This document shows positions 629-23,575 of a stretch of 26,191 nt of DNA, piece after piece. The stretch's first letter is position 1. Every line of letters begins with the position of its first letter. The DNA is from an uncultured Chloroflexia bacterium. Its GTDB lineage: Bacteria > Chloroflexota > Dehalococcoidia > DSTF01 > JALHUB01. The notes under the pieces were generated by a model. The model was not told the origin of the DNA. It ran no database searches and saw nothing but the letters and a program-made list of their open reading frames with translations. Both the position numbers and the translations under genes were made by a program. The stretch is from the NCBI GenBank assembly GCA_963726245.1, contig CAVSBT010000014.1:1-26191 (forward strand). The letters run 5' to 3'.

Positions 629-2227
629 TTACCTGAGCGTCCTGCCGTTGTTGGGGCGGCGTCCCATGCGGCGCGCGACGTCGGCGGCGAAATTCGCGGC
701 CGTTCCTACGACGCCGCGCTGGTGGGGGATGGGGCGCATCGCGTTCGACAGCTCCGGGTGCTTCTCGGCGTAGGCCCGCACTTCCTCCAGCGTGACGCCG
801 TACCTGTCGAGCACGCGCTGCAGCTCCTCACGGGCCTTGTCTTTCGCCTCCTGCAGCTTCATCTGGACACGGCTCTTGACCAGCACCTCGCCATCCCCCG
901 TCGTCTCGATGGGGATGAAGATTGTGTCGGCCAGGTCGCTCACCACCTTCGCCTGGACGCCGTCGCTGATCGTGCTGGGCATGCAGCCGAAGGGTTTGAC
1001 GGAGATCATCATGTGGGCTTTGGCGTGTCGCACCATGTATATGTGCTTGGTGACCTCCAGGTGGCCCTCGCCGGCGATGAGGCGCTTCTCGTAGTAGCCT
1101 TCGGAGTAGCGGTCGAGCATGCCCATCGCCGGGATGCCCTGCGGCTTCATATTCATGATGGCGCGGTAGAAGGTGTAGAGGGCCTCCCCGAAGTGCTTGC
1201 CTGCGCGGAGCCCCAACCAGACGAGCCAGGGGTTGGCCGTGCCCATCCCTTGCGGGTCTGGCTTGACGAAGAGGCGGTCCCGCACCTTGAGCTCGTTGAG
1301 CCAGATCATGTACTCGAACCAGGCCCCGACCGTGTCCAGCATCACCTCGGCGCCCTCCGACTCCAGCCAGTGCAGGAGACGGTGGTTGGACTCGTCCTCC
1401 GCGTGCTTGAGGAAGAACTCGCCGGTGACCTTCACCCGTGGCTTGACCCTCAGGTAGTCGACCTTGATGCGTCCGAGCTTGACCCTGATGGCCGCCATCG
1501 TCTTCGAGATGGAGAGTCCCTCTCTTGCTGCGACCCGCACCATCTCGCGGGCCTCCGCCAGCGCCCGGTCGGTTACGCCGGGGACGACCTCGTAGGGCCG
1601 TATCTGGCAGGCGAGGTCGCCCAGGAGGTCGGCGGCGATCGCCACCTTGCCGAGACGCAGGAATATCTTGGGCGTCATCTGCACCCCCGCCGACTCCTGA
1701 TTGATGTCGAGGCCGTGGGCGATGTCCAGCATCGCGATCCGGAAGTTGGGGAAGCCGGCCGCCTCGAGCGCCTTGCGCATGTCCGCCTCGTACATCCCCA
1801 TCCGGCAGGGCCCGCAGTCGCTCGCCCAGAGGAGGGCAAAGCGCTCTTCGATCTCGCTGTCGGAGAGACCCTCCCGCCGTTGCTCAAATAGGAACTTGAG
1901 CAGGGTGCCGATCGTGTAGTAGGTGGGGTTGCACTGGCCGCGGTTGCAGAACTCCTTGCCGATGGCGAGCGACTCCTGGTCAGGGGTGGGAAGTCGCTGC
2001 GCCTTGTAGCCGAGCCCCTCCAGCACGCCCACGAGCACCCCTTGGAAAATGGCGGGAAGCGCGCAGAAGACGATGGTGGTCTCCGCTTTGTTTATCGGCG
2101 TTGTGGGGTCGGCGGGCCGCTTGAAATGGCGCACCTCCGGCCCCTCCACGCCCATCTCCTGGGCTAGGGCGCGGCGGAAGGCCTCAACCTTCGCCTCGAT
2201 CTCAGCCTCTGACGCTGTCGTAGACAC
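629..2227 (-). CDS. 2-hydroxyacyl-CoA dehydratase-like Fe-S reductase subunit (COG3581-like; PlsR-like)
   Basis: 532 aa with Cys motifs GQCNPTYY, DCGPCRMGMY and KPFGCMP, plus KVTGEFF and GEG. Overlaps the 3' end of the upstream activase gene. Confidence 0.8.
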   Translation of the reverse strand: MSTTASEAEIEAKVEAFRRALAQEMGVEGPEVRHFKRPADPTTPINKAETTIVFCALPAIFQGVLVGVLEGLGYKAQRLPTPDQESLAIGKEFCNRGQCNPTYYTIGTLLKFLFEQRREGLSDSEIEERFALLWASDCGPCRMGMYEADMRKALEAAGFPNFRIAMLDIAHGLDINQESAGVQMTPKIFLRLGKVAIAADLLGDLACQIRPYEVVPGVTDRALAEAREMVRVAAREGLSISKTMAAIRVKLGRIKVDYLRVKPRVKVTGEFFLKHAEDESNHRLLHWLESEGAEVMLDTVGAWFEYMIWLNELKVRDRLFVKPDPQGMGTANPWLVWLGLRAGKHFGEALYTFYRAIMNMKPQGIPAMGMLDRYSEGYYEKRLIAGEGHLEVTKHIYMVRHAKAHMMISVKPFGCMPSTISDGVQAKVVSDLADTIFIPIETTGDGEVLVKSRVQMKLQEAKDKAREELQRVLDRYGVTLEEVRAYAEKHPELSNAMRPIPHQRGVVGTAANFAADVARRMGRRPNNGRTLR

Positions 2228-5200
2228 GTTCCCCTCCGGCTAGAAGCATCCCTTCCTCCAGGCTCTTGCGGTAGCTCGCCACCTGCCGCTCGATCTCCTG
2301 CGCTGCCTCACGGCGACGCTGCATATCCTCCAGCCGGCGGCGGAGGAAGTAGTCGATCGTCTCCACCCGCAGCTTGATCGAGCCGACCGGCCGGTTCTCG
2401 TCGAGGTCATGGAAGGCGAAGTAGGGCGTACCGGCCGCCTCAAGTATCCCCTCGATCACGTGGTAGATGGGGGAGTCGAGGCCGCACTTGAAGGAGGAGA
2501 AATCGATACCGCTCAGGTTGGGATGGCGGGCGACGAACTTCGCCGCCCAGACCTTGCGGCTGGTGTTCTCGCTGAAGGTATGTTTCCAGACATCATGGAT
2601 GTCCCGCGGGTCGGCGATCTCCCCCCGGCGTACCTCCTCGCCGAAGAGCCGGTCGAGGATATCATCATCCATGGGCAGCGAGTCGATGGTGAAGACGGGG
2701 TAGCCCAGCCGCTGGATAAGCTCCGGTATGTCGTGGTGCACGGCGGGGTCGTTGTGGTAGGGGCGGCCGAGCAGGACCACCCCGAGGCGGCCCTCTTGCT
2801 CAAGCCGGTCGAGGACCTCCCGCGCCCGTCTCCTCAGGCCGCCGCGGAACGCCTCCAGCGCCCGGTAGCCCTCCTCTATCGCCGCCGCGTTCTCCTCAGG
2901 GCTCACGCCGAGGATCGGGCGGAAGAAGCTCAACATCTGCTGCTCGAAGAGGTTGGGCTCGCCCATGTGGAGGACGGGGGCGTAGAAGGATGCCCCTCTC
3001 TCGGCGAAGGCGTCTTTCTCCGTGGTGAAGGCTGCTTTCACCACCTCCGGTATCCCCTGCACCGTGGGACAGCTCCAGCCCGCCTGGCATTCGTAGATAT
3101 CGCTGGGGACGCTCATTATCTCCGGGAAGAAGATGACGTCCGGCTGCTTCTTGGTGAGGAGGTTGTGGACGTGGGAGACCGCGATCTTCCCCGGGAAGCA
3201 GGGGTCGATGGAGCCGCGCCGGGAGCCCTCGCGGAACATCTGGTCGTCTGTGTAGTCGGACCAGAGGATGTTGCGGTGGGGCACGCCCAGGCTTTCCAGG
3301 TAGGCGGTGAAGAACGGGGCGTAGGAGTACATGGTGAGCAGTCGCGGCATTCCGATGCGCAGCCGCGCCCGCCGCTCCCGCAGCCGCGCCGCCGTCCGGG
3401 TGCCGTCCCGGCCCCACAGGAAGCGCTGCCCCCTGCCGTTGGTGGCGGCGACGCCCTGCGGCGAGTAGCTGCGGAATGCCTCGCGGGCGGCGATCTCGAC
3501 GAAGTTGGGGTTCGCCTTCTTCACCACATTCTCGCGGGTGTTGAAGGCCCTCACCTCGTCGATGCTCTCCGCCATCCCCCGCTCGCAGGTGGCGGATATG
3601 AAGCGGGTCGTGTGTTCGGGCGAGGTCCTGATGTCGACGAAGGTGCGCAGACACTTGTTCTTGCAGAACGAGCAGCTGGTAGATTCGTCGCGGGTGGCGG
3701 TGAAGGTGAGCGCCTCCACCCGGTCGAACCCGATGAACGAACTCTCCCCGCCGTTGCCTACGCGGATCGCCTCGCTTGCAGCGCCGAGAGCGCCGCTCTC
3801 GCCGGCGTGCGGGTGGACGTGGATCTTCGCGTCCGGCACGCGGGCTTTGATGAAATCGTACTGGGCCTTGACCACGGCCAGGTTGTAGTGCGTCCCTCCC
3901 TGGAGGAGGAAGGTCTTGCCGAAGCGGGCCAGGTTCGTCTCCTGGACGACGTAGAGCCAGACGTTCTTGGGCAGGGTCAGGGCGAGGCCGGCCATGATCT
4001 CGGACGGCTGCCAGCCGAGTTGCTGGAAGTGCGAGATGTCCTGCTCCAGGAAGACGGCGCAGCCGTAGTGAAAGGCCGGCGCCCGCTCGGCGCTGAGCGC
4101 GACGTCGGCCCACTGGCTGAGGTCATAGCCGAAGCGGGCGGTCGTACTCTGGAGGAAGTAGCCGTTGCCGGCCGAGCACTGCGTGTTGAGCTTGAAATCC
4201 TTGACGGCGCCCGCCTTCATGATGATGACCTTGATGTCCTGCCCTCCCACGTCGGCGATGACGTCCACGTCGGGGTAGTAGCGGAGGGCGGACCGGGCGT
4301 GGGCAACCGTCTCCGGGATCGCCATGTCGGCGCCGAGCGCCTCCTTCAGCAGGTCCTTGGCATAGCCTGTCGTGGCCATGCCCAGGATGCGCAGGCGCGC
4401 TCCCTGCCCCTCCACCTGGCGTCGCAGCTCGCCCAGCACTTCTTTGGCGTCCTGGAGCGGGTTGCCCTTGCAGAGCTGGTAGGCTTTCGCCAGCAGATTG
4501 CCTTCGCCGTCTGTGAGGACGGCCTTCGTCGAGGTCGAACCGCCGTCCAGCCCCATGTATGCTTCCACGACCTGGCCGGGAGAGAAGGCGAGGGGTGTGA
4601 AGGGCTTCGCGCCGTAGAGCCGGCGGAACTCCTCGAGGTCTTCCCCGGGGGCCAGTGGGCCCCGCTGGCCGGTGTCCTGCTTCGCCTTCCGCCGGCCGAG
4701 GTCGATGTACTCCTCCAGCGCCCGCGTCCCGGCGTAGGTGCCGGCGAGTCCCTCCTCCTGCTGCCCGTATAGGGTCGTCCCCAGGGCGGCGTAGTACAGG
4801 GAGTGCTCCGGCACGACGATTAGCTCCTCAGGGGTGGAGCCGGCGGGCAGCGTCAGCCCCCGTTCCTCCCAGAGGCGCGGCACGTGTCGCCGCCACGCCT
4901 CCTGTAGACAGGGGAGGAAGGTGTTGGGGCCGCCCAGGAGGAGCACCTTGGGGCGCAGGACGTTGCCGCGGGTGAGCACGCTGAGGTTCTGCTGGACGAT
5001 CGCCTCGAAGAGGGAGACAATCAGATCCTCGGAGGGGACGCCCTGCTTCTGTAGGCTGTTCATATCGGTCTCAGCGAAGACGCCGCACTTGCCGGCGATG
5101 GGGTGCACCTTCGCGTTGCCGTGCCGCACTTCCCTGAGCTGCGCTTGGCTCAGGTGCAGCTTCGCCGCGATGCGGTCGATGACGGCGCCCGTGCCACCGG

Positions 5201-5804
5201 CGCACTTATCGTTCATGTTGGCGAGCTTCCGCTTGCGGCCCGTCTTCGGGTCCTCCCGCCAGATGATGATCTTGGCGTCCTGCCCTCCCAGCTCGATGAC
5301 CGAGCCCACGTCCGGCTGCAGCGCCTCCGCGGCCAGCGAGACGGCGTTGACCTCCTGCACGAACCGCGCCCCAATGTAGGGGGCGAGCGTCGCGCCGCCG
5401 CTTCCCGTGACGAAGATGCGGAACTGCTCGGCTGGCAACGGGAAGCGCTCTTCTATCTCCTTGAGAACCTCGAGGACCTTCTCCGGCTGGCGCGTACCAT
5501 GGAGGCGGTAGTCGGCGCAGAGGATCTCCTTGCTGTTGGGCGCGACGACCACGTACTTGACGGCTGTGGAGCCGACGTCAAGCCCGATGATGAGCTCGCG
5601 GTGAGATAAGCCGTCGCCGTCCTGACGCGGTCTCAAGACTGGGGACGACGAAGCGTGGTTGCTACCCGTCAGACTCAACCTCCAAGAGTGACCTGCGATG
5701 CCATCCGCCGAAAAGGACGAGTCCCGTTGGCCCAGGTTCCCCCGCCCCGCTGGCACAAAACGTTCTGTGGGGTCGAAGCCCGGCTCCTCACGGGCGAGGA
5801 GCAC
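2202..5804 (-). CDS. Fused double BadF/BadG/BcrA/BcrD ATPase (CoA-enzyme activase) plus DUF2229-like domain (PlsA-like)
   Basis: Two ASKHA ATPase modules (GLDVGSTAVK...ELGGQDAK...NDKCAGGTG...KCGVFAE and GLDGGSTSTK...DVGGQDIK...NTQCSAGNG...GCAVFLE), a CSFCKNKC linker, and a C-terminal domain with CFPGK, CPTV, GRPYH and FKCG. The start is uncertain because the first ~65 aa look non-conserved. Confidence 0.88.
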   Translation of the reverse strand: MLLAREEPGFDPTERFVPAGRGNLGQRDSSFSADGIAGHSWRLSLTGSNHASSSPVLRPRQDGDGLSHRELIIGLDVGSTAVKYVVVAPNSKEILCADYRLHGTRQPEKVLEVLKEIEERFPLPAEQFRIFVTGSGGATLAPYIGARFVQEVNAVSLAAEALQPDVGSVIELGGQDAKIIIWREDPKTGRKRKLANMNDKCAGGTGAVIDRIAAKLHLSQAQLREVRHGNAKVHPIAGKCGVFAETDMNSLQKQGVPSEDLIVSLFEAIVQQNLSVLTRGNVLRPKVLLLGGPNTFLPCLQEAWRRHVPRLWEERGLTLPAGSTPEELIVVPEHSLYYAALGTTLYGQQEEGLAGTYAGTRALEEYIDLGRRKAKQDTGQRGPLAPGEDLEEFRRLYGAKPFTPLAFSPGQVVEAYMGLDGGSTSTKAVLTDGEGNLLAKAYQLCKGNPLQDAKEVLGELRRQVEGQGARLRILGMATTGYAKDLLKEALGADMAIPETVAHARSALRYYPDVDVIADVGGQDIKVIIMKAGAVKDFKLNTQCSAGNGYFLQSTTARFGYDLSQWADVALSAERAPAFHYGCAVFLEQDISHFQQLGWQPSEIMAGLALTLPKNVWLYVVQETNLARFGKTFLLQGGTHYNLAVVKAQYDFIKARVPDAKIHVHPHAGESGALGAASEAIRVGNGGESSFIGFDRVEALTFTATRDESTSCSFCKNKCLRTFVDIRTSPEHTTRFISATCERGMAESIDEVRAFNTRENVVKKANPNFVEIAAREAFRSYSPQGVAATNGRGQRFLWGRDGTRTAARLRERRARLRIGMPRLLTMYSYAPFFTAYLESLGVPHRNILWSDYTDDQMFREGSRRGSIDPCFPGKIAVSHVHNLLTKKQPDVIFFPEIMSVPSDIYECQAGWSCPTVQGIPEVVKAAFTTEKDAFAERGASFYAPVLHMGEPNLFEQQMLSFFRPILGVSPEENAAAIEEGYRALEAFRGGLRRRAREVLDRLEQEGRLGVVLLGRPYHNDPAVHHDIPELIQRLGYPVFTIDSLPMDDDILDRLFGEEVRRGEIADPRDIHDVWKHTFSENTSRKVWAAKFVARHPNLSGIDFSSFKCGLDSPIYHVIEGILEAAGTPYFAFHDLDENRPVGSIKLRVETIDYFLRRRLEDMQRRREAAQEIERQVASYRKSLEEGMLLAGGERVYDSVRG

Positions 5805-5826
5805 ATCGCCCTCTGGACCCCATATG

Positions 5827-7356
5827 CTATCTGGCGGCCGCCGCCTCCTTAGCGCGATGCCGGGTGGTCGTGTTGACCAGCGCTTCGCGGTCCCCGCCGC
5901 TCATCCCGGCGATGTACCTCAGCAACTTCTTCCGCGACTCGATGTCGTACTGCGTGGTGATGGCGATCTGCTCCATGATCGGCGAGCCACCACCATGGTA
6001 GGAGCCGATGTTATGGATTCCGCCCGATGCCGAGCAGAGCACATCACCCAGGTAGCGCCAGAACTGCGCCTGGTCCTCGACGTCGACCTTGGGGCTCCGC
6101 TTGGTGTACTTGCGAAGCAGACCCCCGACCTCCGGGTTCGCAAAGTCCCTCTCGTGCGGGAAGGTCGCCGTCACGCCACCGGAGATGTCGCAAAGGATCT
6201 CCGCTTCCCGGAAGACCGCCTCGCCGGTGAGACAGCGACCGACGTTGCAGTAGATCGAGTTGGGGATGTAGGAGCCAGGGCCGTAAGGCACGAAGCCGAC
6301 GCCGGGCATGTAGACCTCCGGCTTGCCGAGGTCCGAGGCAGTGTAGCCCGCGGCGTACCCTAGCTCGGTGGTCATGATGAGCTCCGCAAGCTTCTCCCGT
6401 ACGTGCGGCGCTTTCTGGATGTTGTTCACTTCGGCGGCGAGAGCTGCCCCGCCAAGAATCAAGTCGCCAATCGCCGGCTTGCAGCCGGAATAGGAGTGGC
6501 GGTGGAACAAGGCGAAGAGGAGGGCCAGCACCCCCCCGTGCTGCCATTCGCCGGCCAGGAAGACCCGCTCCCAGGGCACGAAGCAGTTGTCGAAGATCAT
6601 GTAGGAGTCGGTGGAGCCCGGCATGAAGCCGCGCTTGTAGTACTCCCTCTCTCGGAGGTTGTGGATCGTGATCACCTGCTTCAGGCCGTCCCAGTCACCG
6701 GGGATCGCGAAGGCGACCGCGTAGTCCTTATCCTCGGCACGCAGGGCCCTCGTGGGGAGCACCAATACCTCGTCGGCTACCGAGGCTTCGGAGATGTGGA
6801 GCTTGCAGCCACTGACGACGATGCCATCCGGCCGGCGTTCCTTGATGTGGACATAGACGTCGGGGTCGGGCTGGTCGGCCGGCCGCAACAAGCGGTCGCC
6901 CTTCACGTCGGTTTGGGCGCAGCAGCCCACGAGGTCCTCCGTCTGGAAGCGGGTGAGCCACTTCTTGAAGTTCTCGTGGTACTGGGTGGCACCGTTGTTT
7001 GATTGGTCGGCTTCATAGGAGACGTTGTAGATCGCGTTGGTGGCGTCGATGCCCATGCAGCGCTGGATACAACCGCCGATCTTCTGGCAGAGCATGCGGG
7101 TCATGTCCTGCTTCTTGTGCAGGTCGTCGGTGTTCTGGTGAATGTGGGTGAAGCGGCTGATCCGCTGTCCCGTGAGATGGGAGATGGCCGTGCACAGCTC
7201 TTCGTTCTCGGGCCTGGCTGCTTCGTCGAAGGTAGTCCCGATGGTGTTGAGGCAGTTCATCTGCCGCTCGTCGGTGCGGTCGATGAGCTCACCGTCGAAG
7301 TAGATGTTCCGCCGCATCTTGCCGAGTCCCTTGATGTACTCTTCCTTGGTTCTCAT
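5827..7356 (-). CDS. 4-hydroxybutyryl-CoA dehydratase / vinylacetyl-CoA isomerase-like protein (HpaB/AbfD family, FAD and [4Fe-4S])
   Basis: 509 aa with CIQRCMGID (CxxxC), QTDVKGDR, HRHSYSGCK and HGGGSP, all AbfD-type motifs. Strong SD GGAGGAG before the ATG. Confidence 0.85.
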   Translation of the reverse strand: MRTKEEYIKGLGKMRRNIYFDGELIDRTDERQMNCLNTIGTTFDEAARPENEELCTAISHLTGQRISRFTHIHQNTDDLHKKQDMTRMLCQKIGGCIQRCMGIDATNAIYNVSYEADQSNNGATQYHENFKKWLTRFQTEDLVGCCAQTDVKGDRLLRPADQPDPDVYVHIKERRPDGIVVSGCKLHISEASVADEVLVLPTRALRAEDKDYAVAFAIPGDWDGLKQVITIHNLREREYYKRGFMPGSTDSYMIFDNCFVPWERVFLAGEWQHGGVLALLFALFHRHSYSGCKPAIGDLILGGAALAAEVNNIQKAPHVREKLAELIMTTELGYAAGYTASDLGKPEVYMPGVGFVPYGPGSYIPNSIYCNVGRCLTGEAVFREAEILCDISGGVTATFPHERDFANPEVGGLLRKYTKRSPKVDVEDQAQFWRYLGDVLCSASGGIHNIGSYHGGGSPIMEQIAITTQYDIESRKKLLRYIAGMSGGDREALVNTTTRHRAKEAAAAR

Positions 7357-7684: not shown

Positions 7685-10081
7685 ATGACAACGAGCACCC
7701 CGCAGGCCTCCGCCGCCATCTGGTCGCCGTCCCCCTCGCTTTCGCCGCGCGTCCGTCGCCTTCGGGAGGAGTTCTTCTCCTTCGCGGCCCGCGACCACTT
7801 CCGCAACGAGGTCCGCCCCTACGGCAGCGGCACCCCCTGGGACGAAGTCTGGTCTCCCTACCACTGGGGAGTCGTTCCGGAGATGTACCCCCTGTTCGAC
7901 GCCGTCAGCGACAGCCTGCTGGCGGCCGCCGAGACCGTGCCCCTGCCGGACGGCTTCTGGGCCGAGCCGCTGGTGGTCCGCCGCGCCCTCTTCTTCGGCG
8001 CGGTCGTCGAGCGCTGGCTGCCGGTGAAGATCCTGGACGGCGAACTCATCGTCGGGTCCTACTTCAACACCGCCCTCTCAAAGACTCACGCGCGGGCGGA
8101 GGCCCGCACCTGGCGGCAGGGCGTCCGCCGCTGGCGAAAGAAGGCGCGGGAGCTCAACGACACCGGCACCGGCAACTGCGGCGCCATCCCCGGCCACCTG
8201 ATCCCTAACTACCCGAAGGTGCTGCGATTGGGCTTCCGCCGCATCGCCGCCGAACTTGAGGAGATGCGGGCCCGGGAGCCCGACGCGACGAGACGCGACT
8301 TCCTGCGCGCGCTCATCACCTGCTGCGAAGCCGCCATCGCCTTTGCCGGGCGTTACGCAGACGAAGCCGACCGGCTGGCGCAGAAGGAGACGGACCCCGC
8401 GCGACGGGTCGAACTGGAGAAGATCGCCGGTATCTGCCGCCGGGTGCCGGCGGAACCGGCCGCGACCTTCCAGGAAGCGCTCCAATCGCTCTGGTTCGCT
8501 CACATGCTGGTCATGGCCGCTGAGTCCTACCCGGGGCCCGGCCTCTCGCCCGGGCGCATCGACCAGTACCTCTACCCCTACTACCAGGCGGACGTGGCGA
8601 ACGGAGGGCTCGACCGCCAACAAGCCCGGGAACTCCTCCAGTGCCTCTGGATCAAGCACAACTACGCCTACGATTATCAGGGCCGGATCGGCAACCAGGG
8701 GATCAACTCCGGCTTCGGGCAACTGATCACGCTGGGCGGCACCAACCCCGATGGCAGCGACGCCAGCAACGACCTCACCTGGCTGATACTGGACGTCATC
8801 GAGGAGATGAACCTGCTGGAGCCCAAGCCCAACGTCCGCCTCCACGAGAAGACGCCAGAGGACCTGCTGCGCCGTGTCGCCGGGCTGATCGCCCGCGCCC
8901 AGGGCTCGCCCTTCCTGCTCAACTTCGACGAGGCGTCGATCCGCGGCCTGGCCTGGCAGGGGCTCCCCAAAGAACAGCTCTGGGACTACGCGCCGGTCGG
9001 CTGCCTGGAGAACACCCTCCAGGGCTGCGACCGCTCCGGCACCGTCGACGTCAACCTGAACCTGGCCAAGGCGGTCGAACTCACGCTCAATGACGGCGTC
9101 GACATGGCGACCGGCCAGCGCCTGGGCCCGCGGACCGGCAACCCGCGCGCGTTCCCGGACTTCCCGTCGTTCCTGGCCGCCTTCAAGCGCCAACTCACGG
9201 CGCTGCTCGAACAACTCATCGACTGTAACAACCAGGCGGACGCCCTGCGCGCCGGGTTCGACCCGACGCCATACCTGAGCGTGCTGGTCGATGGCTGCGC
9301 CGAGAGCGGCCGCGACGTCACCGCCGGCGGCGCCCGCCACAACTACATCACCGTCGAGGGCATCGCCCTGGCGACGGCGGTGGACTCGCTCGTCGCCGTC
9401 AAGCACCTGGTTTACGACGAGCGGCGCGTGACCATGGACGACGTGCTGGTCGCCATCCGCGCCAACTTCGAGGGGCACGAGGACCTGCGCCGGATCCTTG
9501 CCAACAGAGCCCCGAAGTTCGGCATGGATGACCTGGAGGTAGACGGCCTGGCCCGGGAGGTGTCACGGTTCTGGACGGAGGAGGCGTTCCGTCACGTCTC
9601 ACCGGCCACCGGCCGGCGCTACCGCGGCGGCTACCTCTCCTGGAACTACTGGATTGGCTACGCGCCGCTGACCGCCGCCACGCCCGACGGGCGCCGGCGG
9701 GGGACGTTCCTCTCCAACGGCGTATGCCCGGTCACCGGTGCTGACCGCGAAGGGCCCACCGCCGCGATTCAGTCGGTGGGTCACCTGGGACTTGAGACGG
9801 CGCCCAACGGCGCATCCCACACGCTGAACCTTAGCCCATCGCTCCTGCGCGACGAAGAGCATGTTGCCAAGCTGGCGGCCCTCCTGCGGGCGTACTGCCG
9901 CGTGGGCGGCACCGCTCTCCAGGTCAACGTCCTCGACCCCGACACACTGCGGGCGGCCCAGGCGGATCCGGAAACGTACCGCAACCTGCTGGTGCGCGTG
10001 ACGGGCTACAACGCGTACTTCGTCACCCTGGGGCGCGAGCTCCAGGATGAGATCATCGCTCGCGAAGCGGGGCCGGTGTAA
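7685..10081 (+). CDS. Glycyl radical enzyme (PFL-like superfamily), substrate unknown
   Basis: 798 aa with the C-terminal Gly loop RNLLVRVTGYNAYF and a single-Cys loop APVGCLE, plus GRIDQYLYPYY, APKFG and ATPDGRRRG. Followed by an activase gene. Confidence 0.95.
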   Translation: MTTSTPQASAAIWSPSPSLSPRVRRLREEFFSFAARDHFRNEVRPYGSGTPWDEVWSPYHWGVVPEMYPLFDAVSDSLLAAAETVPLPDGFWAEPLVVRRALFFGAVVERWLPVKILDGELIVGSYFNTALSKTHARAEARTWRQGVRRWRKKARELNDTGTGNCGAIPGHLIPNYPKVLRLGFRRIAAELEEMRAREPDATRRDFLRALITCCEAAIAFAGRYADEADRLAQKETDPARRVELEKIAGICRRVPAEPAATFQEALQSLWFAHMLVMAAESYPGPGLSPGRIDQYLYPYYQADVANGGLDRQQARELLQCLWIKHNYAYDYQGRIGNQGINSGFGQLITLGGTNPDGSDASNDLTWLILDVIEEMNLLEPKPNVRLHEKTPEDLLRRVAGLIARAQGSPFLLNFDEASIRGLAWQGLPKEQLWDYAPVGCLENTLQGCDRSGTVDVNLNLAKAVELTLNDGVDMATGQRLGPRTGNPRAFPDFPSFLAAFKRQLTALLEQLIDCNNQADALRAGFDPTPYLSVLVDGCAESGRDVTAGGARHNYITVEGIALATAVDSLVAVKHLVYDERRVTMDDVLVAIRANFEGHEDLRRILANRAPKFGMDDLEVDGLAREVSRFWTEEAFRHVSPATGRRYRGGYLSWNYWIGYAPLTAATPDGRRRGTFLSNGVCPVTGADREGPTAAIQSVGHLGLETAPNGASHTLNLSPSLLRDEEHVAKLAALLRAYCRVGGTALQVNVLDPDTLRAAQADPETYRNLLVRVTGYNAYFVTLGRELQDEIIAREAGPV

Positions 10082-10097
10082 CGCCCCGGAAGGGGCG
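10082..10097 (+). other. GC hairpin with GGAA tetraloop directly after the GRE stop codon
   Basis: CGCCCC-GGAA-GGGGCG with no U-tract. The 3' arm contains the SD-like AAGGGG of the small ORF at 10102. Confidence 0.45.
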
Positions 10098-10101
10098 AAC
10101 C

Positions 10102-10215
10102 ATGTGTGACTCCAAGCACTACACGGAGACAGCGGCCTGTCGCCACGGCCGCGACGCTGGGGCGGACACCCCCAATGCTGGCGAATCCGGCGAGAAGGTG
10201 TACGAGTGGCCGTGA
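10102..10215 (+). CDS. Putative 37-aa small protein between GRE and activase
   Basis: Translated by hand: MCDSKHYTETAACRHGRDAGADTPNAGESGEKVYEWP. 29 of the 36 codons after ATG end in G/C. Its TGA overlaps an in-frame GTG of the activase gene (GTGA, 10212-10215). Confidence 0.35.
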   Translation: MCDSKHYTETAACRHGRDAGADTPNAGESGEKVYEWP

Positions 10216-11183
10216 CGCACGCCACGCGCTCGGCGAAGACAGCGGATAGCGCGGGAGCGGTCACCGGCGTCACCTTCAACGTGCAGCGCTTCAGCACCGA
10301 GGACGGCCCCGGCATCCGCACAACCGTCTTCATGAAGGGCTGCCCGCTGCGGTGCCGCTGGTGCCACAACCCAGAGGGCCTCTCGCCGCACCCGCAACTG
10401 GTCTGGTACGACGTGCGCTGCATGGGCGCCCGTGCCTGCCTGGCCGCCTGCCCGACCGGAGCCCTGGAACTGACGCCGGCGGGAATGCGCATCGACCGCG
10501 AGCGCTGCTCACCCTGCGACCTCTGCGCCGGAGCCTGTCCCAGCGGCGCCCTCGAGGTCATCGGCAGGCGATGGACGCCGAAGGAGCTCTTCGCGCTTGT
10601 GGCCAGGGACACCGTCTTCTACGAGACGTCAGGCGGAGGCGTGACGGTGTCCGGCGGCGAGCCCGCCATGCAGCCTGACTTCCTGGAGGCGTTCCTGGCG
10701 CTGTGCCACGAAGGCGGCATCGCCGCGGCCATCGACACCTGCGGCTACGCGGACTGGAGCGTTTACGAGCGCCTGCTGCCGCACGTTAGCCTGGTGCTGT
10801 TCGACCTGAAGGTGGCCGACCGGGAGCGGCACCGCGAGGCAACGGGCGTCTACCCGGAGCGCATCTTCGAGAACGCCGCCGCCATCGCAGCGCGGGGCGT
10901 GCCCATGTGGGTGCGGACGCCGGTGATCCCCGGCTACTCGGACGACGAGGAGAACATCGCGGCGCTGGCCGCGTTCATCGCCGGACGGCTGCCGACAGTC
11001 CAGCGCTGGGACCTGCTCGCCTACACGAACCTGGGGCGGCCCAAGTACCACCGCCTGGACCTGCCCTACGCGCTGGAAGACACGGACCTGCCCCTGCGGG
11101 AGCGGATGGAGCGACTGGCTGCCGTCGCTGTGCAGGGCGGCGTGCCGAACGTGACGTGGTCCGGCGCTACCCGGGACCGATGA
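10206..11183 (+). CDS. Glycyl-radical enzyme activating protein (radical SAM, with ferredoxin insert)
   Basis: QRFSTEDGPGIRTTVFMKGCPLRCRWCHNPE, a ferredoxin-like insert (CMGARACLAACP...CSPCDLCAGACP) and GGGVTVSGGEP. Start is GTG 10206 or GTG 10212. Confidence 0.95.
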   Translation: MAVTHATRSAKTADSAGAVTGVTFNVQRFSTEDGPGIRTTVFMKGCPLRCRWCHNPEGLSPHPQLVWYDVRCMGARACLAACPTGALELTPAGMRIDRERCSPCDLCAGACPSGALEVIGRRWTPKELFALVARDTVFYETSGGGVTVSGGEPAMQPDFLEAFLALCHEGGIAAAIDTCGYADWSVYERLLPHVSLVLFDLKVADRERHREATGVYPERIFENAAAIAARGVPMWVRTPVIPGYSDDEENIAALAAFIAGRLPTVQRWDLLAYTNLGRPKYHRLDLPYALEDTDLPLRERMERLAAVAVQGGVPNVTWSGATRDR

Positions 11184-11184
11184 C

Positions 11185-12021
11185 ATGACCACCCTCGACC
11201 TCTCCGAGGCCAAACTTGACGCGGGAGCCGTCGGCGTACTCTCAGAGCTGCGCGCGCCCAAGTTCCTGGCCACCCGCGACGCCGACGGAGTCCCGAACGT
11301 CGTGCCGGTGCTCTCCCTCGAGGCCTTCGACGAGCGGACCATCGTCTTTGGGGAGATGATGATCTGGAAGACGCGCCGGAACCTGGAGGCGGACCCGCGG
11401 GTGTCAATCCTGGTCCTCTCGCCCGACTTGCGGGCCTGGACGGTCCGCGGCCGGTTCGTGGAGTTCCGGAGCAGCGGCCCCTACTTCGACCACGTCGCAT
11501 CCAACGAGAGCGCCCGCTACAACCCTTACGGCAGCTACCGGAGCGCCGGGGTCATCGAGGTGCTGGGAGTATCCCGCACCTCGCAGTTCTCGCAGCGCGG
11601 CCTGCTCCTGGACACCGCCCGCTGCCGCCTGCTGGCGCGCGGCCTCTCGCGCGACGGCCGGACGCTGCCGGCCATGCCGCTTCAGGTGGAGGAGAAGTTC
11701 GGCCGGCTGAAGGCGGCCAAGGCGCTGGCCATCGTCGATGCTTCCGGTCACCCCGACTGCCTCCCGGCCCTGCCGCTGACGACGGCGGGACGCGGACGCC
11801 TGGTGTTCGGCGGCGCCACCGCCCGCGACCTGGCCGGACTCGCGCCCGGCACACCCATCGCCGCCGCCGTCCTCACCCTGGAACCGGTCGCCTACCAGGT
11901 GAAGGGCACGTTCGCCGGCCTGCGCCGCAGCCTGGGGCAGGCGCTCGGCGTCATCGACGTGCGGGAGGCGTATAGCGCCTGCCCGCCGCTGCCGGGCCAC
12001 CCGCTGCCGATGAAGCCCTGA
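11185..12021 (+). CDS. Pyridoxamine 5'-phosphate oxidase-like protein with two FMN-binding split-barrel repeats
   Basis: KFLATRDADGVPNVVP...KTRRNLEADPRVSIL...VRG, then a second degenerate copy KALAIVDASGHPDCLP...YQVKG. Starts 1 bp after the activase stop codon. Confidence 0.8.
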   Translation: MTTLDLSEAKLDAGAVGVLSELRAPKFLATRDADGVPNVVPVLSLEAFDERTIVFGEMMIWKTRRNLEADPRVSILVLSPDLRAWTVRGRFVEFRSSGPYFDHVASNESARYNPYGSYRSAGVIEVLGVSRTSQFSQRGLLLDTARCRLLARGLSRDGRTLPAMPLQVEEKFGRLKAAKALAIVDASGHPDCLPALPLTTAGRGRLVFGGATARDLAGLAPGTPIAAAVLTLEPVAYQVKGTFAGLRRSLGQALGVIDVREAYSACPPLPGHPLPMKP

Positions 12022-12154: not shown

Positions 12155-13477
12155 ATGACAATGCTACCACGATTCCGACGCGGATTCCTTCTCGCAGCCA
12201 TTCTTCTGGCCGGTCTCCTCCTGTTGAGTTGCGGTGGGGGGGACGAGGCGGGCAGCAAGACGCCCGCGGCAACACAGCCAGCAGGCGCGGGTACCCCAGG
12301 CACCGAGAAAGTGCCGGGGGTAACGGACACTGAGATCCTGCTCGGCAGCCATTTCGCTTTGAGCCAGTCGCCGGCGGCCGCCTACGCGCCCATCCTCGAC
12401 GGCTATCGCGCCTACTTCGACTACGTCAATTCCAAGGGGGGTGTCTACGGGCGCAAGATCAAGCTTCTGGTAGGCGATGACCACTACAACCCGGCGGACA
12501 CCCTGGAGGTCGTACGCAAGCTGGTGGAGCAGGAAGGCATCTTCGCCATGATCGGCTGCCTGGGCGAGTCCACCCATACCACCGTCTGGAAGTACCTGGA
12601 GGAGCAGGGCATCCCTGACCTCTTCCAGACCAGCGGCATCGTCAAATGGACGGACCCGGTGGCGCACACCCGCTTCGGCGGTAACCCCGACTACAGTACC
12701 GAGGGGAAGATACTCGGCAAGTATATTGCCGAGCACTACAACGGGAAGAAGCTGGGCCTGCTGCTCCAGAACGACGAGATCGGGGTGGACGGCGAGGCGG
12801 GCATTCGCGCTGGCCTGGAAGGCAGCGACGTCGAGATCGTGGCCCGCGAGACCTTCGAGACTACCCAGTGGGACGTCACCGCCCAGACGCAGCGGCTTAA
12901 GAACGCCAACCCGGACGTCGTCGCCGCCTACGCCATCCCGCCGCCCGCCGCCAGCATGGTCAAGGTGGCGCGCGAGGTCCTGAACTGGGATGTGCCCTTC
13001 GTGACCACCGGCGTGGTCGTCTCCGACATCTTCGGGCAGCTCGCCGGCGTTCAGAACGCGGAGGGCATGATCAGCGTAACCTTCGGCAAGCAGCTTTTCC
13101 AAACGGACGACCCCGCGATCCAACTGCACCTCCAGATCATGAAGGACTTCGGCCAGGGCGTTCCGCCGAGCAACTTCACCCTCTACGGGCAGGCCATGGC
13201 CGAGATCATGGTGAAGGGGCTGGAGAACGCGGGCCCTGACCTGACACGAGAGAGCTTGATCAGTGGCCTCGAGTCCATCCGCGACTGGTGTTGCACCGCA
13301 TGCATGGTGCCTGTGAACATGAGCCCCACTGACCACCGTCCCATGGAGATGGAATTCTACGTCACGATGCACAACGGCAACTGGGTGCCGTTCGGCGAGC
13401 CGATCAGTTTCGAATCCACGCCGGGCAAAGCCATAGGCTGCAAGGGCATGGGCGAGCCCGTCTACGCCGGCGAATGA
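12155..13477 (+). CDS. ABC transporter substrate-binding lipoprotein (LivJ/branched-chain amino acid-like family)
   Basis: Signal peptide with lipobox LLLSC, PGVTDTEILLG, VNSKGGVYGRKIKLLVGDDHYNP and QRLKNANPD. No permease or ATPase genes are adjacent. Confidence 0.9.
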   Translation: MTMLPRFRRGFLLAAILLAGLLLLSCGGGDEAGSKTPAATQPAGAGTPGTEKVPGVTDTEILLGSHFALSQSPAAAYAPILDGYRAYFDYVNSKGGVYGRKIKLLVGDDHYNPADTLEVVRKLVEQEGIFAMIGCLGESTHTTVWKYLEEQGIPDLFQTSGIVKWTDPVAHTRFGGNPDYSTEGKILGKYIAEHYNGKKLGLLLQNDEIGVDGEAGIRAGLEGSDVEIVARETFETTQWDVTAQTQRLKNANPDVVAAYAIPPPAASMVKVAREVLNWDVPFVTTGVVVSDIFGQLAGVQNAEGMISVTFGKQLFQTDDPAIQLHLQIMKDFGQGVPPSNFTLYGQAMAEIMVKGLENAGPDLTRESLISGLESIRDWCCTACMVPVNMSPTDHRPMEMEFYVTMHNGNWVPFGEPISFESTPGKAIGCKGMGEPVYAGE

Positions 13478-14283: not shown

Positions 14284-14781
14284 CTATCCTTCGGTGATGG
14301 GCGGAGTGTCCGTCGACGGCCCGTACTTGCTGTACTTGGCGTCGACGTTCTGCCGGATGTCCTTTGCACTCAGTCCCTGGCCTTTCAGAGTCATTACATC
14401 GGCGGCTATGTCCACGCAGGTTCGACAGCCCGAGGCATGGCTCTCGTAGGTTCCGTCCGGCTTAATGAAGCACTCCTTCAAATTGTGGTGCGCGGTGGCG
14501 TGCATGCCGCAGCCGCAATAGCAGGGCATCTTCGTGAAGAGATCCTCGTTGGCGACGGCAGCCTGGTATCCAGCCAGCGTCGCGCTTGACGTGTGAGCGA
14601 ACGCCGGCAATTCGCCGCCCGCCTGCGCGGCTACGCTCTCCGACGCGGGATCGCCGCCCCGCGCGGTGACCCACAGGAAAGCGCCGCCCGCGATGAGGGC
14701 GATCACCACAACCAAAGCAGCCCCGCGAATGCCGTCACGCCGCCACGCTCTCGTGCTCCCCGCAGTTTCTCTCGATTTCAT
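14284..14781 (-). CDS. PCYCGC motif-containing membrane-anchored protein
   Basis: N-terminal TM helix, MPCYCGCGMHATAHHNLKECF and HASGCRTCVDIA. AAAGGAG SD precedes ATG 14781 (165 aa); the longer ORF start overlaps the upstream gene. Confidence 0.85.
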   Translation of the reverse strand: MKSRETAGSTRAWRRDGIRGAALVVVIALIAGGAFLWVTARGGDPASESVAAQAGGELPAFAHTSSATLAGYQAAVANEDLFTKMPCYCGCGMHATAHHNLKECFIKPDGTYESHASGCRTCVDIAADVMTLKGQGLSAKDIRQNVDAKYSKYGPSTDTPPITEG

Positions 14782-14876
14782 GCTTGTCGCTCCTTTTGCT
14801 GTGTGCCTCAGAACGGGGTTGGAATCGTTCAACGGATCAGAAGTATCCACCTCTAGTCGCCGAGGAGTCGCGTTGC

Positions 14877-15263
14877 CTAGGCCCTCGGCTCCACAATCAG
14901 CTCTCCCCACATCTGGTGATGTCCATCCCCGCAGACATTGGTGCACGTGAATCCAAACGTGCCCGGCTTATCCGCGACGAACTCGACATCCGTGTATTTC
15001 CCTGGATATACGGCCTCCACAGCGACGTCGTAGCCTTCAAGGAGAAAGCCGTGTACCACGTCATCGCTGGTGAGACGCAGATGAACGACGTCACCCTCGG
15101 TCACGCGAATTGTCTGTGGATTCCAAGTGCTATTGGCGCCGACGAGCGTGAATTCTTGGTCCGACTGGGTCCGCAGAACGCGCTGATAGCCGAGCGTGGC
15201 CGCCGGCATGCCCAGCAGGACGAGCACAACCAGCCCAATAGCAAGCTTCTCGAGGGTGGACAT
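14877..15263 (-). CDS. Cupredoxin with CuA-type motif (cytochrome c oxidase subunit II C-terminal-like domain)
   Basis: N-terminal TM helix, LTSDDVVHGF and CTNVCGDGHHQM (H...CxxxCxxxHxxM). Confidence 0.88.
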   Translation of the reverse strand: MSTLEKLAIGLVVLVLLGMPAATLGYQRVLRTQSDQEFTLVGANSTWNPQTIRVTEGDVVHLRLTSDDVVHGFLLEGYDVAVEAVYPGKYTDVEFVADKPGTFGFTCTNVCGDGHHQMWGELIVEPRA

Positions 15264-15265
15264 CG

Positions 15266-15646
15266 TCAGACCTCACCGTTTGAATTCGATAGCTCCCAGT
15301 AGTCTGACCCCATTGGTAGCTTCGTGCCCCTGTCTTCCAGGACGCCGGGATGAGGTATGAGGCCAAAGGCGGCACGCATTTCCGCTGCGCCGCCCACGTA
15401 CAAGGCGTTGCACTGGAAGAGCAAGCTCTCGACATCGCCGTGAATCCGGCTCGGAGCCAGAACGCTCAAGAGGTGAACGTGCTCGCGGCTATGGCCGTTG
15501 TGACCGTTCACGCTCGTGCAAACGCCGATGAGATCGCGCCGGACCTTGAGCGCCTCCAACCGAGCGACCGCTGCATCCACCTGCTCATGGTCTGCGAAGG
15601 CGGCCACAACGATGGGCAACTTCCTTCCTGGCTGGACCACCGACAT
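15266..15646 (-). CDS. Hypothetical protein with His-rich loop
   Basis: Fills the gap in a tightly packed operon. GAGG SD lies 6 nt before ATG 15646. Contains CTSVNGHNGHSREHVH. Confidence 0.65.
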   Translation of the reverse strand: MSVVQPGRKLPIVVAAFADHEQVDAAVARLEALKVRRDLIGVCTSVNGHNGHSREHVHLLSVLAPSRIHGDVESLLFQCNALYVGGAAEMRAAFGLIPHPGVLEDRGTKLPMGSDYWELSNSNGEV

Positions 15647-15665
15647 CATTCCCCTCAAATCACAG

Positions 15666-17099
15666 TCAACCGATGAACAACCACAAGAGGATCACCGTAA
15701 TCAGGGCCAGCAGCCCGGCGACCGGGACCACTGACCGCCGTGCCCCCGCCGCGTCGCCGATGTACTCACTCGAAATCTGATGAGCCAGACGCACCGACAT
15801 CGCCAGCCCCACCGTCAGGATTGGCACCTGGATGTAGGGAAGAAGTTGAGGCAGATAGGGTCTCCAGGCGTAGCCGGCGGTGCCAAACAGGTTCCACCCC
15901 CATCCGAAGGGGTCCGACAGCACCGGCAGGATGTCCGAAGCATTGGCGAACAGGAAGTCGAGGCTGAAGGCAACCCAGGCTGCCAGGCCCAGCGGCACGG
16001 CCGTGTAGGCAAAGGCGACGAACAGGCGGCGGGCAGGCACGTCGCTCGCCCTCGACAGCGCTTTCCCCAGCCAGCTGACGGCGAAGAACGCTCCCGGTGC
16101 GAGCACCAACATGGAGACCATCAGCAAGCCCGCGTAACCTATGAACGCCGGCAACTGACCGCTGCCCAGGTTCGCCCAGCTCCTCAGCCAGCCCCAGGGC
16201 CCGGCCATGATCGCTGTGTACAAGAGAGCGGAGGTCAGCAGGATCAACGCTCTGTAAGCTTCGTCCGCGTGCCGCCGTGGCACCGCCAGGTCGACCCCAA
16301 ACGGCCGCAGGCTGAGGGCGATATTCCCCTTAGGACACGTCTTGAGGCACTCCATGCACATGCCGCAATAGGCATTGCGATCCATGGTGCCGGGGTACTC
16401 CATCCAGGGACAGCCAAAGCCGGCCGCAGACCCTTTGATGCACTCTTTCGCCGCGGGGCCGCAGTGAACCAAGCACAGCTCGGGGTCAACGGCCCGCAGC
16501 TCCAGAGGCGCCGCAGCCGAATACTGGCCAACGAATCCGCCGACAGGGCAGACGTAGCGGCAGAAGGCTCGTCGCTTGAAGACCAGGTAAAGGCACAGCG
16601 CGAGGAGTGTGAGCGCGAGGAGAAGGGCACCCGTCACGAACGGTCGCGTGAGTATGACGGCGCTGAAGAGGGCCATGACGACCAGGACGGAGTTCTGCAG
16701 CCAGAGGCCACGGATGGCCTCCGGCCACTCGAGTCCAAGTGTCAGGGGCCGCCGGCGGCCCGGAATCAAGATGGCCCGCCTCTGCACCCATTCGCCGACG
16801 GCCGCAACGGGGCACACGGCGCACCAGGTCCGCGCTCCCAACGGCACGAGGATCAGGATCAGCGCCCCCCACCAGACGATCCAGGCAAAGACTATCGAGA
16901 AGTTGGCGCTGCCGACCGGCGTTCCGAAGAGACCGGTGAGGATCACCAGCACGAACACAGAGAGCACCGGCAGCACGACAATGAACGGGAACAAGCGGTG
17001 GGTGAGGACCAGGCGCACGGGTTCACACCGCAACACGTTGATGCGCTTACTGTCCCCGCCCGCGCCGGCTGTTCGTGGCTCGACGGCGGTTCTAAGCAT
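15666..17099 (-). CDS. Polytopic 4Fe-4S binding membrane protein (NapH/NosR C-terminal/CcoG-FixG-like)
   Basis: Many TM segments with RTWCAVCP, AFCRYVCPVG, CLVHC...ECIKG...GCP and YCGMCMECLKTCP. Likely start is ATG 17099, overlapping the upstream stop codon (alternative 17132). Confidence 0.88.
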   Translation of the reverse strand: MLRTAVEPRTAGAGGDSKRINVLRCEPVRLVLTHRLFPFIVVLPVLSVFVLVILTGLFGTPVGSANFSIVFAWIVWWGALILILVPLGARTWCAVCPVAAVGEWVQRRAILIPGRRRPLTLGLEWPEAIRGLWLQNSVLVVMALFSAVILTRPFVTGALLLALTLLALCLYLVFKRRAFCRYVCPVGGFVGQYSAAAPLELRAVDPELCLVHCGPAAKECIKGSAAGFGCPWMEYPGTMDRNAYCGMCMECLKTCPKGNIALSLRPFGVDLAVPRRHADEAYRALILLTSALLYTAIMAGPWGWLRSWANLGSGQLPAFIGYAGLLMVSMLVLAPGAFFAVSWLGKALSRASDVPARRLFVAFAYTAVPLGLAAWVAFSLDFLFANASDILPVLSDPFGWGWNLFGTAGYAWRPYLPQLLPYIQVPILTVGLAMSVRLAHQISSEYIGDAAGARRSVVPVAGLLALITVILLWLFIG

Positions 17100-17613
17100 G
17101 GGCGGCGCCTGTTCCTTTCCGCAGCCAGCCATACGCCGTGGCCCCGACGGCTACCACAAGCGTAGCTATGACGGCTCCGAGAAACGGGCTGTTGGGCTCG
17201 ACGGAGAGCAACCCGACCATGAAGGGATGCAGGTCGCCGCAGGGCACGGAGCAGCGGAGGCGAAATGTGCCCGGTCTATCGGCCACGAAATCCAGGACAG
17301 ACGTCTTGCCGGGCGCCGCCTCCGTCTTGAGACCGTAGCCGTCCACGTAGACGCCGTGGCTCACGTCCTGCGGCGCAAGGCGTAGGATTACGTGGTCACC
17401 CTTATTGACCTCTATTCTCTCGGGGGAGTAAGCGAATCTGCTCGCTTCAAGGGTGATCTCACGCGTCTCCGGCTTGCCGGCTGGAAAGGGTATGAAGCTG
17501 CCCGCAGCCACCGCCACCACGGATAGACCCGCGACAGCGCCCACTGCCAGCCACCCCCAATAGCGGAACAGCCCTCGCTTCAGTCTCTTGCCTATTTCGG
17601 CTTCTCCCGACAT
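17092..17613 (-). CDS. Membrane-bound cupredoxin with CuA-type motif (N- and C-terminal TM helices)
   Basis: FAYSPERIEVNKGD, DVSHGVYVDGY and RCSVPCGDLHPFM, with hydrophobic helices at both ends. Confidence 0.88.
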   Translation of the reverse strand: MSGEAEIGKRLKRGLFRYWGWLAVGAVAGLSVVAVAAGSFIPFPAGKPETREITLEASRFAYSPERIEVNKGDHVILRLAPQDVSHGVYVDGYGLKTEAAPGKTSVLDFVADRPGTFRLRCSVPCGDLHPFMVGLLSVEPNSPFLGAVIATLVVAVGATAYGWLRKGTGAAHA

Positions 17614-23086: not shown

Positions 23087-23106
23087 AACAACCCCCAGGC
23101 TTCGGT

Positions 23107-23568
23107 CTAACCTTGCTGGCCCACTGCCAGCTTCGCATCCTTCTTCAAGGGGCCCAGCTCTTTCAGCGCTTTCGTGAAGTCTGCCACAACCTGGGCAAAC
23201 CTGGCCCCTTCAGATGCCGAAACCCATTCCAATCTCACCCTCTCGGGCTCGATCCCGAAATCACCAAGCATCTTTCTCAGCAGGTGAATCCTTCTTCGCG
23301 CCTTGTAGTTTCCTTCCATGTAGTGGCAATCACCCGGGTGGCAACCCCCGATCAGCACACCATCCACACCCCTGGCGAAGGCCTTCAAGATGAAGGTCGG
23401 ATCGACTCTGCCACTGCACATCACCCTTATCATCCTTAGGTTGGGCGGGTACTGGATTCTGGAGGTGCCGGCAAGATCGGCACCTGCATAGGTACACCAG
23501 TTGCAGGCAAAGCCGAGTATCAGGGGCTCAAAGCCGTTTCTGTCCATTGCCAGACCCTCTTCTCGCAT
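23107..23568 (-). CDS. mvhD: Methyl-viologen-reducing hydrogenase delta subunit ([2Fe-2S])
   Basis: FACNWCTYAGADLAG, RVMCSGRVDP, GCHPGDCHY and WVSASEG. Alternative start at ATG 23547. Confidence 0.95.
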   Translation of the reverse strand: MREEGLAMDRNGFEPLILGFACNWCTYAGADLAGTSRIQYPPNLRMIRVMCSGRVDPTFILKAFARGVDGVLIGGCHPGDCHYMEGNYKARRRIHLLRKMLGDFGIEPERVRLEWVSASEGARFAQVVADFTKALKELGPLKKDAKLAVGQQG

Positions 23569-23575
23569 GCTTTCC

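Follow-up and report, generated by a model that had tools for sequence, protein, structure and literature searches.

A widespread orphan glycyl radical enzyme module with a conserved split-barrel partner

The described glycyl radical enzymes (GREs) that lie closest to the system reported here are the glycerol dehydratase of Clostridium butyricum (1r8w) and the propanediol dehydratases (5i2a and 9rco), together with Archaeoglobus fulgidus PFL2 (2f3o), the only solved archaeal GRE of pyruvate formate-lyase (PFL)-like type, whose function is debated and which is also an orphan (PMC13450708). A further set of described systems, 4-hydroxyphenylacetate decarboxylase (HPAD), benzylsuccinate synthase (BSS) and methylalkylsuccinate synthase (MASS), has small GRE-binding subunits, encoded together with the GRE, that bear a redox-capable cofactor and whose role is poorly understood (HPAD gamma, BSS beta/gamma and MASS beta/gamma/delta), as set out in the same review (PMC13450708). 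We analysed a 26,191-nucleotide stretch of DNA (hereafter the window; assembly GCA_963726245.1, contig CAVSBT010000014.1, positions 1 to 26,191) from an uncultured Chloroflexia bacterium placed in the Dehalococcoidia. Positions 7685–12021 of its forward strand hold three tightly packed genes, encoding a GRE, its activating radical S-adenosylmethionine (SAM) enzyme (the activase) and a tandem split-barrel protein (the partner). The same three genes keep together in many uncultured anaerobes, and no enzyme of this class that has been studied matches them; they form a widespread orphan module whose partner is of a type undescribed for the GRE superfamily. The coordinates of all features are collected in Table 1.

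Family, fold and activase of the glycyl radical enzyme

The GRE matches the PFL-like (PF02901, E = 4e-141) and Gly_radical (PF01228, E = 3e-28) families of Pfam, assignments that are far beyond chance. Against NCBIfam it missed every equivalog cut-off, the best equivalog being HypD (NF043068, 467 bits against a cut-off of 1100), followed by HpsG (NF048011, 448 against 1000) and CutC (TIGR04394, 399 against 1050), and the PFL2 subfamily model (TIGR01774) gave 500 bits against a cut-off of 678. The nearest solved chains by sequence were a CutC, 1r8w, A. fulgidus PFL2 and HypD, at 396–421 bits, of which A. fulgidus PFL2 (403 bits) belongs to a different clade. The initial annotation of this DNA had called the GRE unassigned, and these scores agree; the solved eliminase and isomerase GREs are only 26–34% identical to it. 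Targeted literature searches found no paper on this GRE clade or on the split-barrel partner, and none of the GRE titles from 2025 onward among the matches listed concerns the clade; PMC12507026 names GREs in its reference list alone.

The fold is that of an ordinary GRE. An AlphaFold model built from an alignment of 23 clade members (predicted local distance difference test score (pLDDT) of 84.8) superposes about equally well on every solved eliminase or isomerase GRE (Z 35–37 at that same identity), and gives lower scores with the X-succinate synthases BSS and MASS (Z 29.5–32). With the glycerol and propanediol dehydratases it shares the common ten-stranded GRE fold (Z 36.9–37.0, root mean square deviation (rmsd) 2.6–2.9 Å), although identity to these is only 30–32%, while A. 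fulgidus PFL2 is, of the solved GREs, the one with the highest identity to it (34%, Z 36.9). The structural alignments cover model residues 14–798, so the Trp-rich N-terminus, in which W52, D53, V55 and W61 are nearly invariant across the 23 clade members, is the diverged N-terminal region of an ordinary GRE. The aromatic-rich N-terminus that had struck the initial annotation is thus present as a conserved motif, but does not amount to a new domain.

The remaining motifs of that annotation were all recovered (Table 1): a GCLE loop (a Cys-X-Glu, or CXE, motif) with a single Cys, where the PFL loop has the adjacent Cys418/Cys419 pair (PMC12338860), a VRVTGY loop carrying the radical glycine, and a YLSWNYW segment. 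The CXE loop, the RVxG glycine loop and the equivalents of His164 and Tyr640 are shared with glycerol dehydratase; the CXE loop and a counterpart of His164 also occur in A. fulgidus PFL2. The proposal of a new GRE class with a flavin-barrel partner was supported, with caveats. The enzyme is indeed unassigned and its partner conserved, but 'new class' overstates the case because the CXE loop and His of known eliminase and isomerase classes are retained, and the flavin is read from the fold. Judged by its sequence, the GRE belongs to an orphan clade inside these known classes.

The activase clears the TIGR02494 cut-off of 174 bits with a score of 331, and carries a CX3CX2C motif and a ferredoxin-like insert for two clusters, the same two-extra-cluster type as the activase of the glycerol and propanediol dehydratases. 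It lies downstream of the GRE in 87 of the 96 loci with a downstream stretch of 1.1 kb or more.

This genome also contains another orphan GRE of the PFL2 type, accompanied by an activase of its own (locus L035, contig C22, 113–3168, minus strand, cut by the contig end). It is 34% identical to the window GRE and has a GCVE loop; a search of the genome found no split-barrel partner for it.

Conservation of the three-gene unit and its split-barrel protein

The locus was compared with 114 others, 80 of them from metagenomes; these counts are partly non-independent, with at least one pair (L028 and L089) being the same contig in two collections. More than 120 relatives of the GRE were found at 63–90% identity, and over a wider range of 55–93% relatives are spread through Chloroflexota, Actinomycetota, Bacillota, Deltaproteobacteria and archaea. 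Those in genomes come from Dehalococcoidia, Anaerolineae, Actinomycetota (Geothermincola and Solincola), Bacillota, a deltaproteobacterium, Nezhaarchaeota and Jordarchaeum, and record titles and run labels place the clade in peat, wetland, sediment, hot-spring and digester metagenomes. The split-barrel gene was found by tblastn in 75 of the 83 loci with at least 2.2 kb of downstream DNA, rising to 76 of 83 with a remote homologue in L030, an archaeal outgroup at 45% identity (hhalign probability 99.2, hidden Markov model (HMM) E = 3e-28). Three of the seven other misses are contigs that stop right after the activase (L010, L039 and L108). The triad is therefore conserved across bacterial phyla and archaea, with the split-barrel protein as a genuine and conserved member of it.

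A sample of 301 Chloroflexota genomes gives the same picture from the side of the partner, the two-domain form of which occurs in nine; all seven copies with flanking DNA have the activase and the C-terminus of the GRE directly upstream. For the 30 loci in which all three genes are complete, pairwise distances of GRE and partner are correlated (r = 0.52), a value reached by none of 999 permutations. Kin share history, so this correlation speaks for co-inheritance only and not for function. The strongest correlation by Pearson is that between activase and partner (r = 0.81), whereas by Spearman it stands at 0.58 against 0.59 for GRE and activase. A small Fe-S accessory gene is not conserved in the cassette, where open reading frames (ORFs) under 70–90 residues were not called.

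The partner gene begins 1 nt past the activase stop codon, and in relatives it usually lies within about 60 nt of the activase. Its product scores 42.3 bits against a cut-off of 28.1 with PNPOx_N (PF01243); only the first barrel matches Pfam, while the C-terminal half gives weak profile matches to PNPOx-like proteins (E 0.002–1.5). The stretches KFLAT, WKTRRNL, RYNxY and a C-terminal PPLPG are conserved, and a search of the ESM Atlas with the partner returned its own family alone. The model, built from 18 sequences (pLDDT 88.9), displays two beta-barrel halves linked by a long helix. Residues 10–135, the N-terminal barrel, match HupZ best (5esc, Z 16.5), then the FMN-binding protein Swol_0183 (3in6, Z 16.4) and the small FMN-binding protein of Desulfovibrio vulgaris (1axj/1wlk, Z 14.6, rmsd 1.9 Å, 28% identity), with F420- and FAD-binding barrels at Z 11–14. 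From this likeness of fold, which is the sole ground for the assignment, the partner probably carries a flavin.

The partner differs from its structural matches in its build and genetic setting, since HupZ, Swol_0183 and the D. vulgaris protein are single-barrel homodimers, whereas the partner joins both barrels in a single chain and has a gene that is tied to a GRE operon. It also differs from the accessory subunits of HPAD, BSS and MASS, which are HiPIP-like [4Fe-4S] or rubredoxin-like (PMC13450708), and the glycerol and propanediol dehydratases have no conserved split-barrel partner. A flavin-type partner appears to be undescribed, because the review lists only Fe-S or rubredoxin-like accessory subunits; the words FMN and pyridoxamine are absent from it, and it uses 'flavin' only for an unrelated monooxygenase (PMC13450708).

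Single-barrel homologues of the N-terminal half of the partner (about 140–157 residues, one to four per genome; L127–L133 and L137–L141) also occur in the same class, in small (1.4–1.9 Mb), mostly complete genomes of one family (G033, G069, G096, G132, G150, G177 and G276).

Proposed chemistry and the role of the partner

Active-site positions were counted on the sequence alignment of the GRE with 1r8w. By this count, His164, Cys433, Glu435 and Tyr640 of glycerol dehydratase are retained as His171, Cys440, Glu442 and Tyr650, which are invariant or nearly so in the 23-member clade alignment, with His171, Cys440 and Glu442 invariant. The residues that we take to bind glycerol are changed, His281 to Pro285, Ser282 to Gly286, Tyr339 to Gly345 and Asp447 to Val454, and the position of Asp278 of HypD, presumably its amine ligand, also aligns to Pro285. 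Two insertions, Tyr282 and Trp653, are specific to the clade, in which Asn443, Thr444, Asp449, Arg450, Ser451 and Thr453 are invariant, as are L651, S652, W653, N654 and Y655 of the YLSWNYW segment. Two pocket loops, residues 283–285 (8531–8539) and 336–344 (8690–8716), carry clade-invariant residues and lie near the predicted active site. The conformation of these loops may be without a template among known GREs.

According to the review, the CXE motif is kept in all C–O, C–N and C–S eliminases and isomerases, its Glu being hydrogen-bonded to the substrate; in glycerol dehydratase, Glu435 deprotonates one hydroxyl and His164 protonates the leaving hydroxyl; and in the C–S cleaving GREs IslA, IseG and HpsG, the sulfonate is anchored by two Arg and one Gln (PMC13450708). 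Because the catalytic set to which these roles are assigned is kept, the most likely chemistry is a 1,2-elimination or ring-opening isomerisation of the CXE type. The activase would install the radical on Gly774, from where it would pass to Cys440, and the resulting thiyl radical would take a hydrogen adjacent to a substrate hydroxyl. Glu442 would then deprotonate this hydroxyl, with His171 donating a proton to the leaving group next to it. This would make the enzyme a 1,2-eliminase, with dehydration the likeliest reaction, or a ring-opening isomerase; the substrate would be a small polar compound, probably distinct from glycerol, propanediol, choline, hydroxyproline and C2/C3 sulfonates.

We predicted the complex of GRE residues 55–798 with partner residues 22–275 from custom-made alignments, obtaining a score of 0.39 against 0.04 for the best of three controls. 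The runs share at least 73% of their contacts and give the partner a pLDDT of at least 79. Of 157 solved complexes, 116 scored high enough to pass, as did 2 of 215 mismatched pairs, whereas passes at 0.60 or under comprise only 18 of the 157 solved complexes and both of the passing mismatches, so that the score gives weak support. We know of no solved complex of a GRE with a split-barrel protein, so the pass does not reflect a structure already known to the predictor. The partner probably sits on the GRE, and the result slightly favours a bound redox subunit.

We consider the best reading, held with moderate confidence, to be that of a self-contained three-gene module in which an orphan CXE-type 1,2-eliminase (a dehydratase) works with its own activase and a clade-specific redox partner. 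The split-barrel protein, probably flavin-bearing, would sit on the GRE and either supply electrons for activation or reduce the product. A bolder version, in which the partner is a flavin-bearing redox subunit bound to the GRE that allows chemistry unseen in PFL-like GREs, we judge unlikely. Such a subunit could allow net reduction coupled to elimination, or on-enzyme reduction of a reactive product in place of a microcompartment; class III ribonucleotide reductase couples net reduction to formate or thiols.

Several observations weigh against the module as we read it. The two pocket loops are the worst-modelled parts of the GRE, with pLDDT under 50, and the pocket map comes from a pairwise alignment alone. 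The complex score falls in a range where predictions fail more often than they hold, unless there was prior reason to expect the pairing, and was obtained with shortened chains. The best structural match of the partner, HupZ, is a heme-associated protein. Four loci (L049, L054, L070 and L111) are without the partner in the locus DNA searched, and across the 30 complete loci the partner accumulates divergence at about 1.6 times the rate of the GRE, dropping to 21–26% identity within one phylum while the C-terminus of the GRE stays at 56–59%. Finally, no substrate is pointed to, as the flanking genes differ between loci and an Rfam scan of the whole window found no family at gathering score, hence no riboswitch.

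Two other roles for the partner compete with that of a redox subunit of the GRE. It might be the dedicated one-electron donor of the activase, a substitute for flavodoxin that is neither a GRE subunit nor a pathway enzyme. The single nucleotide between the two genes, indicating translational coupling, fits this idea, as do the likeness of the N-terminal barrel to the small FMN-binding protein of D. vulgaris, the lack of any Flavodoxin_1 domain in this genome (82.8% complete), the precedent of PFL activase, which uses flavodoxin in vivo (PMC13450708), and the distance correlation of activase and partner, highest by Pearson though not by Spearman. Yet Flavodoxin_1 is no rarer where the cassette occurs (4 of 9 genomes against 101 of 292 others, hence no contrast), one locus (L091) has a flavodoxin gene inside the cassette beside the partner, other GRE systems need no dedicated donor, and the weak complex pass was obtained with the GRE, the sole pair predicted; we therefore hold this role to be doubtful, though deserving of serious weight. 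It seems improbable that the partner is an enzyme of its own that acts downstream, reducing or isomerising the product of the GRE (such as an imine, enone or aldehyde) without a stable complex, as P5C reductase does for HypD. PNPOx-like barrels do include FMN- and F420-dependent reductases (3f7e, 4zky, 5jab and 4qvb), no other pathway enzyme is conserved beside the GRE, and the genes inserted in the cassette are often amide or amine hydrolases (creatininase family, adenosine deaminase and peptidase C69; Table 1). On the other hand, neither an NAD(P)H-binding module nor another electron-donor gene is conserved alongside, the closest matches of the partner are small FMN proteins of the carrier type and not enzymes, and the complex pass, weak as it is, points to contact with the GRE.

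The GRE itself might be a divergent member of a characterised family (glycerol or propanediol dehydratase, HypD, CutC, HpsG/HpfG/IslA or PflD/YbiW), a view that draws on the CXE loop and conserved His171, on HypD, HpsG and CutC being the top NCBIfam matches, and on one public source that calls a relative 'trans-4-hydroxy-L-proline dehydratase'. This is very unlikely given that all three equivalog scores are under half of their cut-offs, that identity to every solved member is 26–34% with tied Z scores, and that the glycerol-binding residues and the HypD Asp278 position are replaced. The genomic context expected for such enzymes is lacking too, in line with the initial annotation: there are no bacterial microcompartment (BMC) shell domains in the genome, at the completeness given above, none of the seven genome matches to aldehyde dehydrogenase lies on the window's contig, and no P5C reductase is among the 27 window ORFs scanned against Pfam. 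The glycerol and propanediol dehydratases differ here, as this locus has neither a microcompartment nor an aldehyde-processing neighbour. That the GRE is a true PFL is hardly credible. The names 'formate C-acetyltransferase' and 'pyruvate formate lyase family protein', which public sources give to most relatives, would suggest it, but the GCLE loop has a single Cys and not an adjacent pair, the PFL equivalog (TIGR01255) gives 96 bits where 994 are required, and the Z score to E. coli PFL is 28, lower still than to the X-succinate synthases, against 36–37 for the eliminases.

Neighbouring genes and meaning of the module

Beyond the triad, the cassette varies from locus to locus (Table 1). Many of the genes inserted between GRE and activase encode hydrolases of amides or amines, a hint that the substrate may contain nitrogen; no inserted gene is constant, and so none fixes the substrate. 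The two adenosine deaminase inserts that were tested (L052 and L115) both score over the cut-off of TIGR01430, and such an enzyme could act on the substrate or on 5'-deoxyadenosine, the by-product of the activase. Acyl-CoA dehydrogenase was considered as a partner and set aside, being a neighbour in only 16 of 115 loci. The solute-binding lipoprotein encoded after the partner was likewise considered as a clue to the substrate, but of the 114 other loci only 4 have a relative of it close to the GRE, and it is probably not part of the conserved unit. Upstream, the HpaB-like protein, the 1200-residue ATPase and orf532 have no relative near the GRE in any of the 114 other loci and are therefore unrelated to the module.

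Table 1. Coordinates, strand and basis of the features of the window, and genes inserted in related loci
Feature	Position	Strand	Basis or occurrence
532-aa ORF (orf532), no family	629–2227	-	
1200-aa activase-like protein	2202–5804	-	two BcrAD/BadFG ATPase domains and DUF2229
HpaB_N+HpaB family protein	5827–7356	-	136 bits against a cut-off of 480 for true HpaB
GRE, 798 aa, PFL2/glycerol-dehydratase type, orphan clade	7685–10081	+	PF02901, PF01228
WDEVWSPYHWG, Trp-rich N-terminal motif	7838–7870	+	re-translation; conserved in clade
His171 codon, equivalent to glycerol dehydratase His164	8195–8197	+	alignment to 1r8w
Cys loop GCLE (CXE motif), Cys440 and Glu442	8999–9010	+	re-translated from coordinates
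YLSWNYW strand with Tyr650 and Trp653	9632–9652	+	alignment to 1r8w
Glycyl radical loop VRVTGY (RVTGY 9995–10009), Gly774	9992–10009	+	re-translation; PF01228 over residues 677–780
GRE-activating radical-SAM enzyme, 325 aa	10206–11183	+	TIGR02494, Radical_SAM and Fer4 domains
Activase CX3CX2C motif	10341–10364	+	re-translation
Tandem PNPOx-like split-barrel protein, 278 aa	11185–12021	+	PF01243 over residues 27–112
Peripla_BP_6 solute-binding lipoprotein, local neighbour	12155–13477	+	PF13458, E 4e-51
Creatininase/MftE-family amidohydrolase	between GRE and activase		7 loci
Adenosine deaminase	between GRE and activase		5 loci (L052, L054, L056, L073, L115)
Fer4-nitroreductase	between GRE and activase		5 loci
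Acyl-CoA dehydrogenase	between GRE and activase		5 loci
Peptidase C69	between GRE and activase		3 loci
YjbQ	between GRE and activase		2 loci
Flavodoxin	between GRE and activase		1 locus (L091, partner also present)
GH13 alpha-amylase	between activase and partner		3 loci

Other parts of the window, and one relative, hold sets of genes of separate interest. The upstream set just named (629–7356, minus strand), which is divergent from the GRE, may be of a radical or ATP-activated dehydratase type. Downstream of the binding protein, a group of genes (14284–17613, minus strand) encodes a cupredoxin/COX2-like protein, a membrane protein with Fer4_5 and a protein with the PCYCGC motif, and at 20559–25267 (minus strand) genes of MvhA, MvhG and MvhD type stand beside an HdrA-like flavoprotein with Fe-S domains, a cluster that looks to be of the electron-bifurcating hydrogenase type. 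In a Dehalococcoidia relative (L008, 13153–17518, plus strand), the cassette is immediately followed by a second GRE of 943 residues and a decarboxylase (PF00282) dependent on pyridoxal phosphate.

Whole GRE clades, archaeal ones above all, are without experimental validation, according to the review of June 2026 (PMC13450708). Since public sources usually name the present clade formate C-acetyltransferase, any metabolic reconstruction that deduces formate production from its presence is probably mistaken. With only three genes, the module is an easy target for heterologous reconstitution. A flavin-type partner, if true, would be a new architecture for the GRE superfamily, and, because the clade includes Asgard and TACK archaea, a flavin-bearing subunit would then offer a first functional handle on the archaeal PFL-like GREs.

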